NCBI GenBank assembly: GCA_001817055.1
Contig: MHHP01000021.1
Coordinates: 1 to 36,016, forward strand
Origin: Candidatus Andersenbacteria bacterium RIFCSPHIGHO2_02_FULL_45_11
GTDB taxonomy: Bacteria; Patescibacteriota; Andersenbacteria; UBA10190
Direction: 5' to 3'
DNA length: 36,016 nucleotides
Below, in pieces: positions 8,699-34,789 of the stretch. A program made the translations under genes and the position numbers. Position 1 is the first letter of the stretch. Each line of letters opens with the position of its first letter. Under the pieces are notes generated by a model. The model searched no databases. It was not told where the DNA came from and was given only the letters and a program-made list of their open reading frames with translations.

Positions 8699-8845
8699 CG
8701 TCGCGCTCCCTTCTCCTGTTTTGGGAGAAGGTTAGCTTTGCCTTTGTGCAAAGCGCGGATGAGGGGAAGTGAATAGCAGCTAACGCCCCTCACCCCTGCC
8801 TGCCGGCAGGCAGGCTAGCCCTCTCCCAGAACGGGAGAGGGGAAC
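8699..8845 (+). repeat. Composite GC-rich hairpin repeat, family B, copy 1 (fills the convergent HD/comFC spacer)
   Basis: Four modules are present: hairpin ccttctcc/ggagaagg (8709-8731); an extra hairpin gctttgc/gcaaagc (8735-8754); gagggg...cccctc; and a perfect 20-bp palindrome cctgcctgccggcaggcagg (8795-8814), followed by hairpin ccctctccc/gggagaggg (8819-8841). It is colinear with 23487-23596 and with the reverse complement of 14259-14378. Confidence 0.85.
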
Positions 8846-31452: not shown

Positions 31453-31866
31453 ATGACAGTCAAAGCATTTGGGCTTGGGTCCTTTATTACCGCCCTTATT
31501 TCCTGGGGAATTTTGTTTCTGATCATTAATTGGATCGACCCTACTAAAAGTGCCGCGGCTGCATTTATTCTCTTTTTTCTCACACTCTTTTTAGCCGTTG
31601 CAGCAACGGCAGGCTTAATTGGGTACATTGCCCGTACCATATTTATGCGTCATCAGCTCCCGGCATATCGCGTGCGCCCATCCCTTCGGCAAGGAGTATT
31701 TTTAGGAGTATTTGTTGATCTGCTCCTCTTTTTACAATTGGAGAGGATTTTAGTATGGTGGGTAAGCGCGATTATCGTTCTACTCTTTATTGTGATTGAA
31801 TTAGTATTTACGTCATATGACCGACATGGAGCAACAACTCGAGGATCTACAGAAGCAAGCCAATAA
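31453..31866 (+). CDS. Small integral membrane protein, unknown function
   Basis: 137 aa with four hydrophobic helices. TAGTAT (31441-31446) lies 6 nt before the ATG. Its 3' end overlaps the pheS start by 50 nt. Confidence 0.6.
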   Translation: MTVKAFGLGSFITALISWGILFLIINWIDPTKSAAAAFILFFLTLFLAVAATAGLIGYIARTIFMRHQLPAYRVRPSLRQGVFLGVFVDLLLFLQLERILVWWVSAIIVLLFIVIELVFTSYDRHGATTRGSTEASQ

Positions 31867-32932
31867 AGAGCTTGCAGAAGTTTCGGATGCATCTGCCTTA
31901 GAGGCATGGCGCGTTTTATATATCGGGCGAAAGGGAAAACTCCCTGAGCTGCTTCGTGGTGTTAAGGATTTAGGCGATGAAGAAAAGAGAGTGATTGGTA
32001 AAGCGGCGAATATATTAAAGAGAACACTTGAAGAAGCATATTCTGTAAAACAAGAGTCGTTTATCGCATCCGCACCTAATAAGCTAATGAAAGCCCTGCC
32101 TGCCGGCAGGCAGGTACAAGCTAACGAAGCTAGCGTAGGCCATTTGCATCCGATCACACTTACGATTGAACGTGTGCAAAATATTTTTGCGGCTATGGGC
32201 TTCATTATCGCCGATGGCCCGGAAGTGGAAGAGGCAAGATATAACTTTGATGCACTAAATATTCCGTCAGATCATCCTGCTCGTGGAGAAGGGGATACGT
32301 TTATGATTGATCCTAAGAGTGTGAGTGGGGAACAGGATGTAGTGCTGCGTACGCAAACATCGCCGATGCAGATCCGATCCGTGGAAACGATGCGCCTCAC
32401 CCCGCCATTTTATGTAATTGCTCCAGGCCGAGTATATCTAAGGGAAAAAGTAGATGCAACACACGAATCAACGTTTTATCAATTTGAGGGCTTAGGAATA
32501 GGGGAGGATATAACAATTGCAGATTTTAAGGGGGTTATTGCTGCATTCTTTTCTACATTCTTTCAAAAAGACGTAACCGTGCGTCTACGTCCTTCATACT
32601 TTCCGTTTGTCGAGCCTGGATTTGAAGTTGATATGAGTTGCGTTTTTTGTGCTCAAAAAGGGTGCAGGGTTTGTAAGTACACAGGTTGGATTGAAGTAAT
32701 GGGTGCTGGCATGGTACATCCGAACGTACTCAAAAATATGAATATTGATCCAACGAAGTATCAGGGCTTCGCCTTCGGTGGCGCTATTGATCGGCTTACA
32801 ATGATCCGACATGGTATTAACGATATTAGGATGTTTTGGAGTGGAGATATTAGGTTTTTACGACAGTTCTCGAACTGTCATTCCGGCCCCCGAGCCGGAA
32901 TCCACGTGGATGCCGGATCAAGTCCGGCATGA
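31817..32932 (+). CDS. pheS: Phenylalanine--tRNA ligase alpha subunit, with a repeat-derived C-terminal extension
   Basis: HPARGEGDTF, RTQTSPMQIR, FRPSYFPFVEPG and GAGMVHPNVL class II motifs. The conserved end ..GDIRFLRQF is followed by 20 extra codons (SNCHSGPRAGIHVDAGSSPA) and a stop from a palindromic element. An alternative ATG lies at 31826. Confidence 0.9.
   Translation: MTDMEQQLEDLQKQANKELAEVSDASALEAWRVLYIGRKGKLPELLRGVKDLGDEEKRVIGKAANILKRTLEEAYSVKQESFIASAPNKLMKALPAGRQVQANEASVGHLHPITLTIERVQNIFAAMGFIIADGPEVEEARYNFDALNIPSDHPARGEGDTFMIDPKSVSGEQDVVLRTQTSPMQIRSVETMRLTPPFYVIAPGRVYLREKVDATHESTFYQFEGLGIGEDITIADFKGVIAAFFSTFFQKDVTVRLRPSYFPFVEPGFEVDMSCVFCAQKGCRVCKYTGWIEVMGAGMVHPNVLKNMNIDPTKYQGFAFGGAIDRLTMIRHGINDIRMFWSGDIRFLRQFSNCHSGPRAGIHVDAGSSPA
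32095..32114. repeat. Perfect 20-bp palindrome cctgcctgccggcaggcagg inside pheS
   Basis: Identical to 8795-8814 (a module of repeat B1). A 16-bp version lies at 14288-14303. Here it is translated as (A)LPAGRQV. Confidence 0.85.
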
Positions 32933-32936
32933 CAAG
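32875..32936. repeat. Nested palindromic element (family D) at the pheS-pheT junction
   Basis: tgtcat-tccggc-ccccga-gccgga-atccacgtggat-gccgga-tcaagt-ccggc-atgaca. The outer stem is tgtcat/atgaca, enclosing two inner hairpins and a central 12-bp palindrome. It supplies the pheS stop (32930-32932). Confidence 0.8.
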
Positions 32937-32944
32937 CTGTTACT

Positions 32945-34789
32945 ATGAAATTCTCGTACCAAAAAATTAAAAAAATAATTCCAAGCCTCACACTATCTCC
33001 AAAAGAGTTGGCAGAGCTTCTTACCATGCATGCGTTTGAAACTGTTGTTGATCGCGAGTACGTAATAGATCCAAGCATGACGGTTGTAAAAATTCTCAAG
33101 CTCGATCCTCATCCAAACGCAGACCGTCTTCGTCTTGCAACAGTAACCGACGGAACGAACGAAATCCGAGTTGTATGTGGTGCGCTAAACATTGAAGTGG
33201 GGCAGATTGTCCCGTACGCACCTCCGGGAGCACGTGTGTATGATGAGCACGGTGAATTATTTACCTTGAAAGAAGCAGTGATTCGAGGAGAGACAAGCCC
33301 CGGAATGTTAAATTCTGTCCGAGAACTAGGGATATCAGACGATCATGGCGGAATCCTGATTCTTCCCGAAGATACCCTCATTGGGTCAAAGCTTGCTCTG
33401 CATATTCCAAGCGATACGATATTTGACGCTGATGTGCTACCTGATCGCGCGCACGATGTGCAATCAGAAGAAGATATTGCGCACGAAATCGCAGCACTTC
33501 TTGGGCTTGCAAAATCATCTGACCGAAAGATGGGTACGCACACAATTGCTTTTAATCCAGATAGTCCAAGTAAAATTGCGGGGGTAAACATTTCTCATGA
33601 AGAAGTGCGGGATATTTTGGAACGATTAGGGTTTATAATCTCTCCCCCTGCCCGAGGGGGAGCTGGAGGGGGTGGGAGTGGCGACGTGTGGTCTGTGACC
33701 GTCCCGTCTGCGCGCCCTGATGTGCTGGGCGAGCATAATTTGGTTGATGAAGTTGTTCGCGTGCACGGACTTGATGCAATTCCACCGTCTACAATGGATT
33801 TCTCAAAGCCATTACCCGTATCACCATCAGTATATTGGATTGGACTCATTCGTCGCACACTTGCAGAATCAGGATTTACAGAAACGTATAGCTATTCGTT
33901 TGAAGATGAACGATTTGCGAAATTGGTGAACACAGAAATTCATCCGCACGTTGAGCTTTCAAACCCTATGGCACCGGAGCTGAAGAATCTCAGGTACTCG
34001 ATGCTGCCAGGGCTAATTTCTGCAATGGTGAAAAGTCGAGATGACATTCATCGGACAAAGAAAAATCAGGAGAGGGCCCTGTTTGAAATAGGGCGTGTAT
34101 ATCATCGGGGCGATGAGGGTGTAGTGCCTGGTATTATTGAGCGGCCTGTTATCGCAGGCATCGCGGTAGGGGATGAGGTAACACTACAAAATATCGTTGA
34201 TCGCATTCGAGAATTGTTTCAGATAGAAGCGCTCACTGTTATTCCTGCAGAAAAGCCATTTGCGAAATACAGTCTTTTGAAATACGCGGATGAATTTTTC
34301 GGTATTGGATATATATTCAGCAATGAACTCCTGAAAAAGATGAAATACAGAATGCCGGTCATTGCGTTTGAAATAAGTTTCAACGCGCTCATGAAGCATG
34401 CGCCAGATGTGGAAATTCCTGTGCGGACACTGGACGAGATTCGAAATACACTAGAAACTCCCGCGCAATTCGTCGAACTGCCAAAATATCCAAGCGTATT
34501 TCGAGATATATCAATGCTCGTACGTCCGGAAGTAACCGTCGAGCAAGTCCAAGAAATTATTGAGCGTATTGGAAAAGGGTTAGTCGTAGACGTGGATCTC
34601 TTTGATGAATTTACGCCTCTCCCCCTGCCCGAGGGGGAGCTGGAGGGGGTGGGAGTGGCGCGAAAATCTCTGGCGTTTCATATTGAATATAGATCTTCAG
34701 AAAAAACCCTTACCGATACAGAAATAGCAGAATTGCACTCAAAAATCGAACACGCCCTCAAGAAAGAATGTAACGCCGAAATACGGTAA
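32945..34789 (+). CDS. pheT: Phenylalanine--tRNA ligase beta subunit (short form, B3/B4 editing domain missing, two repeat inserts)
   Basis: tRNA-binding (EMAP-like) domain DPHPNADRLRL..VVCGA, B5 domain (VTVPSARPDV..LVDEVVRVHGLD), B6/7, and a C-terminal FDX-ACB domain (KYPSVFRDIS...KSLAFHIEY). It is 614 aa, against about 795 aa in E. coli. Confidence 0.9.
   Translation: MKFSYQKIKKIIPSLTLSPKELAELLTMHAFETVVDREYVIDPSMTVVKILKLDPHPNADRLRLATVTDGTNEIRVVCGALNIEVGQIVPYAPPGARVYDEHGELFTLKEAVIRGETSPGMLNSVRELGISDDHGGILILPEDTLIGSKLALHIPSDTIFDADVLPDRAHDVQSEEDIAHEIAALLGLAKSSDRKMGTHTIAFNPDSPSKIAGVNISHEEVRDILERLGFIISPPARGGAGGGGSGDVWSVTVPSARPDVLGEHNLVDEVVRVHGLDAIPPSTMDFSKPLPVSPSVYWIGLIRRTLAESGFTETYSYSFEDERFAKLVNTEIHPHVELSNPMAPELKNLRYSMLPGLISAMVKSRDDIHRTKKNQERALFEIGRVYHRGDEGVVPGIIERPVIAGIAVGDEVTLQNIVDRIRELFQIEALTVIPAEKPFAKYSLLKYADEFFGIGYIFSNELLKKMKYRMPVIAFEISFNALMKHAPDVEIPVRTLDEIRNTLETPAQFVELPKYPSVFRDISMLVRPEVTVEQVQEIIERIGKGLVVDVDLFDEFTPLPLPEGELEGVGVARKSLAFHIEYRSSEKTLTDTEIAELHSKIEHALKKECNAEIR
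33641..33683 (+). repeat. GC-rich hairpin repeat, family C, copy 1 in pheT
   Basis: tctccccctgcccgagggggagctggagggggtgggagtggcg, with hairpin ctccccct-gccc-gagggggag. It is translated as SPPARGGAGGGGSG. Confidence 0.9.
34618..34660 (+). repeat. GC-rich hairpin repeat, family C, copy 2 in pheT
   Basis: 43 bp identical to 33641-33683, but read in a different frame as LPLPEGELEGVGVA. Confidence 0.9.

Follow-up and report, generated by a model that had tools for sequence, protein, structure and literature searches.

A gene-less Ssn-type palindromic doublet probably inserted at the pheS stop codon of a Candidatus Andersenbacteria genome

Results

An inserted doublet at the pheS–pheT junction

We analyzed a 36,016-nt stretch of DNA (the window; contig MHHP01000021.1, positions 1–36,016) from the 884-kb genome of Candidatus Andersenbacteria RIFCSPHIGHO2_02_FULL_45_11 (GCA_001817055.1; referred to as G000, with its contigs labelled C1, C5, and so on), focusing on the junction between pheS and pheT, which encode the alpha and beta subunits of phenylalanyl-tRNA synthetase (PheRS). 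Coordinates given without a contig label are positions in the window. We consider it likely that a gene-less doublet of the Ssn type was inserted at the pheS stop codon and persists there as selfish DNA that the cell tolerates, not as a selected regulator. Judging from the comparison with relatives, which lack both the C-terminal tail of PheS and the palindrome, the tail and the new stop codon are an inserted palindromic repeat. The pheS element is one case of a genome-wide invasion of G000.

The element occupies 59 nt (32876–32934) and reads tgtcat / tccggc-ccccga-gccgga / atccacgtggat / gccgga-tcaag-tccggc / atgaca. The palindromic layout described in the original prediction, with a TGA at 32930–32932 and pheT starting 12 nt downstream, was confirmed from the sequence. 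The element is composed of two 27/28-nt modules (GTCAT-hairpin-ATCCA) arranged head to head, with no gene inside (Table 1), and the pheS open reading frame (ORF) ends with ...GDIRFLRQFSNCHSGPRAGIHVDAGSSPA and the new stop, which is separated by 12 nt from the pheT ATG (32945). Identical or near-identical copies of module A were found in C5, C12, C8, C9, C1, and C28, and exact copies of module B in C9, C22, C30, and C38. In the copies in C12 and C30, the halves of the central palindrome are split by a spacer of 14–22 nt. The bases AACT preceding GTCAT are common only to the closest copy, C9:14237–14299.

Table 1. Coordinates of the features discussed in the text
Feature	Position	Strand	Basis or remark
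pheS, PheRS alpha subunit, 371 codons including the repeat-encoded tail	31817–32932	+	ORF; 68–85% identity to same-genus PheS
Hairpin gacagtt-ctcg-aactgtc, in which gacagtt belongs to native pheS codons and aactgtc to the left edge of the insertion	32862–32879	+	RNA minimum-free-energy fold
Outer bound of the DNA missing from relatives	32873–32940	+	Junction comparison
Module A, GTCAT-TCCGGC-CCCCGA-GCCGGA-ATCCA, forward CCGG-type Ssn-related motif	32877–32904	+	Pattern match
Central palindrome atccacgtggat / ATCCACGTGGAT, where the 3′ flanks of modules A and B abut	32900–32911	.	
Module B, TGGAT-GCCGGA-TCAAG-TCCGGC-ATGAC, inverted, CTTGA loop type	32907–32933	-	Pattern match
New pheS stop, TGA within the terminal ATGAC of the element	32930–32932	+	Sequence and ORF
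pheT, PheRS beta subunit, start intact, same frame as pheS	32945–34789	+	ORF
SsnA-like GIY-YIG gene, 96 aa	C29:2596–2886		PF01541, 63 bits
Y1/HUH-like gene 1	C8:4777–5562 (L039:1171–1956)		Bracketed by CAATTCCAAGG-loop-CCTTGGAATTG hairpins, two sites, only at this gene
Y1/HUH-like gene 2	C17 (L040:1282–1935)	-	Inverted copies of a 32-nt motif on both sides

The RNA of 32855–32950 folded at −36.2 kcal/mol (z = −4.5), and none of 200 shuffled sequences was as stable; the z-score of the DNA fold was −3.4. The additional hairpin at 32862–32879 described in the original prediction is present in the RNA minimum-free-energy fold. Both the RNA and DNA folds contain two neighbouring 8-bp hairpins, and the outer tgtcat/atgaca pairing competes with the lengthening of each hairpin. 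A tRNA-like cloverleaf, suggested by the T-arm-like TCAAG loop, was ruled out because the folds contain two independent hairpins and no closed cloverleaf. There was no terminator-like site (a GC-rich hairpin followed by a T-run) in 32500–33300 and no promoter-like site at the pheS–pheT junction. No Rfam family exceeded its threshold at the junction, and a match to the M23 RNA family (19.5 bits against a threshold of 41.2) was taken as chance.

A full-text literature search with the core of a related module led us to the family to which we assign the element. In Neisseria, the NTS repeat (CGTCATTCCCGCGMAVGCGGGAATCYRG), which includes the dRS3 repeat, belongs to a broader class named Ssn-related motifs (SRM) (Chenal et al., Nat Commun 2025, PMC11893778). 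Judged by its flanks, its structure, and its association with a partner gene described below, the window element is a stem variant of the NTS/SRM family, not a canonical NTS. Neither this family nor the construction of the doublet from modules had been recognised in the original prediction.

Comparison with relatives

PheS ends with ..RFL(R/K)QFS in 12 of the 13 same-genus genomes, and the stop codon is followed by one base and then by the pheT ATG (e.g., TAAtATG). The same-family genomes searched mostly end with QFS too, and more distant relatives end with QF. Among 134 pheS loci collected from public genomes and metagenomes of Patescibacteria, 99 PheS sequences end at QF and 32 end one residue later (together 131 of 134); one of the others has 6 extra residues, and two records from a single organism have 28. 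As for the 20-residue tail described in the original prediction, the extension is real, but relatives end with QFS and not with QF, so the net gain is 19 or 20 residues, depending on the boundary. The case that would have spoken against an inserted palindrome, a conserved extension lacking the palindromic structure, was looked for in relatives and was not found.

Two placements of the boundary stand because no relative is close enough to G000: we found none closer than 74–85% identity among genome contigs or 75% among metagenome contigs. In one placement, 68 nt (32873–32940) follow the Ser352 codon, and the old stop codon is now TAC (32941–43). In the other, 65 nt (32870–32934) follow Phe351, and the old AGC TGA is now AGC TGT (32935–40); the genome G012 has an AGC TGA of the kind presumed here. 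Judged by this comparison, the insertion has abolished the ancestral stop-T-ATG overlap of pheS and pheT.

The organism with the 28-residue tail is Candidatus Andersenbacteria RIFCSPHIGHO2_12_FULL_45_11b (G010). Here too, the tail (DRVIPAKAGIQVDPPSRRAGVDAGSSPA) derives from palindromic modules of this family, and it ends at a TGA carried by ATGAC. Module B is identical over 30 nt at the two junctions, whereas the left module of G010 is of the NTS type with a 26-nt spacer, against the CCGG type in G000. In the PheS tree, G010 groups with three genomes (G005, G001, and G007; support 90/88), all free of the insertion, and G000 lies outside this group. The pheS–pheT junction was therefore most likely hit twice, independently in G000 and G010. 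In G010 (L020, C44), the same 9 nt (AAACTATCT) follow both the ATGAC of the element and the ATG of pheT, a local duplication adjoining the insertion.

Predicted consequences for PheS and pheT

An AlphaFold2 model of PheS was confident except for loops and the tail. For residues 353–371, the predicted local distance difference test (pLDDT) score was < 50 and secondary structure was absent, which makes it probable that the tail is disordered. No Shine-Dalgarno-like sequence was found before pheT in G000 or its relatives, and the translation of pheT therefore probably depends on ribosomes completing pheS. Here, pheS and pheT share a frame, with only the TGA and four codons between them (32930–32947), and read-through of the TGA would yield a fusion of the alpha and beta subunits.

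Another palindrome lies further upstream in pheS. A perfect 21-nt palindrome, CCCTGCCTGCCGGCAGGCAGG, is in frame within the gene (..KALPAGRQVQ..; 32094–32114) and also occurs at 8794–8814. Most relatives have a gap in this region, where the model is of low confidence (residues 86–108). The palindrome belongs to a different repeat family.

Distribution of the modules in the genome and the phylum

A 71-nt query gave 41 BLAST matches in G000, of which about 6 were full doublets and the others were halves. The CCGG-type pattern (GTCAT-N-CCGG(N7-8)CCGG-N-ATCCA) matched 35 copies in G000 and none with the reversed pattern used as a control, so the element is more than a chance palindrome. In a survey of 401 sampled Patescibacteria genomes from 320 genera, this pattern was present in 52 genomes and 37 genera, with 98 copies in one genome. 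A broader search for GTCAT-hairpin-ATCC with any stem of ≥ 5 bp gave 55 superfamily modules in G000 (reversed control, 0), six of which contain the exact Neisseria NTS core TCCCGCGAAGGCGGGA. The superfamily has a common shape: a 5′ GTCAT, a covarying GC-rich hairpin starting ATTCC../..GGAAT, and a 3′ ATCCA(C/G).

In the CCGG-type copies, GTCAT...ATCCA was present in 35 of 35, with the columns invariant in the alignment of doublets, and base −1 was T or C in 33 of 35. At two variable positions of the stem, the bases pair in 33/35 and 34/35 copies (as T-A, C-G, or G-C), which was equalled in none of 10,000 shuffles. By this covariation of the stem, the hairpin is under constraint. Modules are 27–28 nt long and doublets 57–73 nt, with inverted termini (TGTCAT/ATGACA) conserved among the doublets.

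In G218, a genome of the same family but another genus, 22 of 23 modules are an identical 27-mer (GTCATGCCGGACTTGATCCGGCATCCA), which suggests a recent burst. In G000, three modules in C1:27676–28886 have near-identical flanks at a spacing of 525–660 nt, and are thus part of a larger tandem repeat.

Copies that touch coding sequences

The 39 units in G000 form 33 elements, of which about 15 are intergenic, 8–9 lie inside long ORFs, and 3–4 overlap the 3′ ends of genes. About 40% of the copies touch coding sequence, compared with the 2% of NTS located inside genes in N. meningitidis (PMC11893778). Pfam supports several of the long ORFs as real genes, encoding PrmC, 6-phosphogluconate dehydrogenase, a PMT_2 glycosyltransferase, a Wzy_C ligase, and a YfhO-like protein; in all five, as in GrpE and PheS, the modules are in open frame. 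GrpE in relatives ends with ..RPAKVKVGK or similar, and that of G000 ends with ..VTAELSSRPVSRDPDHPADVDSGSSPE, its stop being the TGA of ATGAC. Peptides derived from the same modules occur in other genes as VIPAPEPES.., ..RGFRIKSGMT, and ..SGSSPE (the last directly before a stop), which bears out the view in the original prediction that peptides of this kind are repeat-derived. We found no literature on in-frame palindromic repeats in Patescibacteria.

Other repeats were found at the 3′ end of grpE in G010 (L251), G006 (L255), and G011 (L259), and the C-terminal extensions at the grpE–dnaK junction of these three relatives derive from three distinct repeat families. Operon junctions appear to be places where repeats generally land or survive. 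One loop of PheT contains a different palindromic family in G000 and G011 and, in G010, the family found at the pheS–pheT junction, read in another frame (VIPAPEPESRSMWMPDQARHD).

A candidate partner nuclease

SsnA of Neisseria is a 94-aa single-domain GIY-YIG protein that binds the hairpin only as single-stranded DNA and cleaves a few nucleotides upstream of it, and its gene lies in the layout NTS-ssnA-NTS (PMC11893778). G000 has four small GIY-YIG genes. The SsnA-like gene in C29 lies between a forward module, 15 nt upstream of it, and an inverted one, 8 nt downstream, and its predicted product carries Y6, Y17, and E64, which correspond to the residues that were mutated in SsnA; its best match in the PDB was UPF0213 BH0048 (E 2.5e-4). 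Among 30 homologues of this gene in the phylum, 21 had an upstream module, 21 had a downstream module, and 18 had both, and at these loci the stems vary and the flanks are constant. In G003, a genome of the same genus, the GIY-YIG gene is bracketed by CCGG-type modules, as in the window.

When a gene was called Ssn-like at E ≤ 1e-8, it was present in 41 of the 52 module-bearing genomes and in 131 of the 349 others (odds ratio 6.2), a difference that is indicative only because related genomes are non-independent. The published degenerate SRM pattern (HGTCWYN(0-2)YYVSBRHN(0-5)WNVSBRGN(0-2)RNCYNB) gave 21 matches across G000 against 5 in the reversed control; one of them, of the NTS type, is at C29:2555–2582, beside the GIY-YIG gene.

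Two further GIY-YIG genes of G000 have other surroundings: that at C4:10665–11036 (L042) is between direct repeats of ∼90 nt, and that at C6:9180–9485 (L044) follows a tRNA and three tandem hairpins (accGCGC-tga-GCGCggt). The ∼32-nt motif flanking the second Y1/HUH-like gene, TTCAACCCTTACCTTTGAAGTAGCAATATAAT, has seven copies (C1:8597, C4:5629, C15:37705, C17:13339, C17:14068, C38:20349, and C40:20987). With a −10-like TATAAT at its end, it may serve as a promoter common to these sites.

Discussion

How the doublet could have spread

The reading that we favour is that of a selfish, gene-less doublet. Such a doublet would be the non-autonomous form, resembling a miniature inverted-repeat transposable element (MITE), of a module-ssn-module cassette. 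The sole gene of this cassette would encode a GIY-YIG nuclease of ∼96 aa that cuts single-stranded DNA adjoining the hairpin, and by acting on hairpins extruded in single-stranded DNA, this nuclease would spread or maintain the copies. At pheS, the copy would have persisted because the damage is small: the tail is predicted to be disordered, and with a stop supplied by the element 12 nt ahead of the pheT ATG, a terminating ribosome could still melt hairpin B and re-initiate on pheT. More tentatively, a GIY-YIG single-strand nuclease of ∼95 residues may act in trans to drive the doublets as active miniature mobile elements. This would be a transposon type with neither transposase nor recombinase, which survives preferentially at gene boundaries in compact operons of the Candidate Phyla Radiation (CPR). 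Its ends would allow either in-frame read-through or termination at the TGA in ATGAC, so that it could rewrite the termini of essential genes (pheS, grpE) repeatedly and independently.

Several observations weigh against this account. Ssn-driven mobilisation was only a hypothesis in the published work, which demonstrated a role in transformation instead (PMC11893778), and we found no follow-up literature demonstrating it. The modules around the C29 gene have other stem types (TCCCGCG, CCCCGGG) and not CCGG, and NCBIfam gave weak GIY-YIG matches to the C29 protein. The published SRM pattern had no match in the window contig, since the CCGG stem violates its R position. An Ssn-like gene was missing, at the threshold given above, from 11 of the 52 module-bearing genomes; G218 is among them, with only two partial GIY-YIG matches, and the driver of its burst may have been lost or degenerate. 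No target-site duplication was common to the flanks of six doublets, and no exact empty site could be defined. In addition, translation of the tail and coupling to pheT are predictions from the sequence.

Alternative explanations

It is unlikely, in our estimation, that the element is kept as an intercistronic RNA structure setting the PheS:PheT ratio through transcript stability or by gating pheT initiation, although this would be compatible with a selfish origin. The strength of the RNA fold argues for such a role, as do the end of hairpin B 12 nt before a pheT ATG that has no Shine-Dalgarno sequence and so depends on upstream ribosomes, and the related elements at the same junction in two lineages. 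However, 131 of the 134 PheS–PheT junctions of the phylum do without the element, the same modules occupy dozens of unrelated sites on either strand, including coding sequence, there is no sequence conservation exceeding that of the repeat family, and the substrate of SsnA is single-stranded DNA and not RNA (PMC11893778). The original prediction's proposal of an adaptive balance between alpha and beta subunit expression is unsupported, the element being one of many selfish-looking copies. An old extension of PheS, inserted once before the split of G000 and G010 and then precisely lost in the other genomes, is very improbable. The identity of module B over 30 nt and the somewhat similar right flanks would fit a single event, but G010 groups apart from G000 with genomes free of the insertion, and the left modules differ. 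Moreover, the identical variant of module B is common elsewhere in both genomes, so its identity is no proof of common descent.

Mobilisation by another enzyme, as a repetitive extragenic palindromic (REP)/REPIN-type element moved by a RAYT-like (Y1/HUH) enzyme of G000, appears quite unlikely. G000 has two PF01797 proteins whose best NCBIfam match is the REP-associated tyrosine transposase family, the architecture of doublets plus singlets is REPIN-like, and some module-rich genomes have no Ssn-like gene. Yet both Y1 proteins score below the NCBIfam cut-off (44 vs 80 bits), and the modules have no GTAG-type REP signature. The two Y1 genes are flanked by structures of their own, the CAATTCCAAGG hairpins and the inverted 32-nt motif, with no GTCAT module, whereas GTCAT modules directly adjoin the GIY-YIG genes in 18–24 of 30 loci. 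It was on the flanks of both Y1 genes that we rejected RAYT as the mobiliser.

Comparison with known repeat systems

The elements resemble NTS/SRM in having an oriented 27–28-nt hairpin whose stem starts ATTCC, with a conserved (C)GTCAT on the 5′ side and ATCC on the 3′ side, in the ∼95-aa single-domain GIY-YIG gene between a forward and an inverted module, and in their tens of copies in G000, ∼100 in G111, and wide phyletic spread. They differ in that the stem of the window element is built on CCGG and does not fit the degenerate pattern of the published work, the host belongs to the Patescibacteria (Andersenbacteria), the window copy is a tight gene-less doublet, and the nuclease of G000 is known from its sequence alone; the share of copies touching coding sequence, given above, is a further difference.

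Going by the summary in PMC10969869 of the work of Ogata et al. (2000), Rickettsia palindromic elements (RPEs) of ∼100–150 bp are selfish palindromes that lie in frame in unrelated housekeeping genes of a reduced genome and are translated as additional peptide in tolerant parts of proteins. By analogy, and to the extent of that summary, RPEs appear to be the closest precedent for the invasion of coding sequence described here. The likeness is one of behaviour. The modules (27–28 nt) and doublets (57–73 nt) here are too short to fit the RPE size, the pheS copy replaces a stop codon instead of sitting inside a protein, and a candidate partner gene (GIY-YIG) is visible in G000.

The REP/REPIN-RAYT systems and BIMEs of enterobacteria and pseudomonads are also built from imperfect palindromes of small size, whose 5′ flank is conserved and which are often paired as inverted doublets. 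There as here, the repeats are linked to a nuclease or transposase that is encoded by a single-copy gene flanked by repeats of its own, and they probably act on single-stranded hairpins. Unlike those systems, the partner in G000 is a GIY-YIG nuclease and not Y1/HUH, the elements are not extragenic, and the Y1 genes have other hairpins. MITEs likewise have two terminal inverted repeats, a missing internal gene, many copies, and known in-frame fusions to host ORFs. However, MITEs are typically far larger, no target-site duplication was found here, and the putative autonomous form has no DDE transposase.

Implications

Ssn-type repeats, which were described in 2025 mainly as intergenic in Neisseria and other Pseudomonadati, pervade an ultra-small CPR genome, where they reshape coding sequence; among the altered sites are the terminus of an essential aminoacyl-tRNA synthetase subunit and the junction with its partner gene. 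For genome annotation, this means that odd C-terminal tails and “hypothetical” peptides in CPR genomes, such as ..SGPRAGIH.., ..VIPAPEPES.., and ..DSGSSPE at a stop codon, are repeat-derived. The occurrence of gene-less doublets beside module-ssn-module cassettes offers a testable case that a small nuclease may spread its own recognition sites, a question left open by the published work (PMC11893778).

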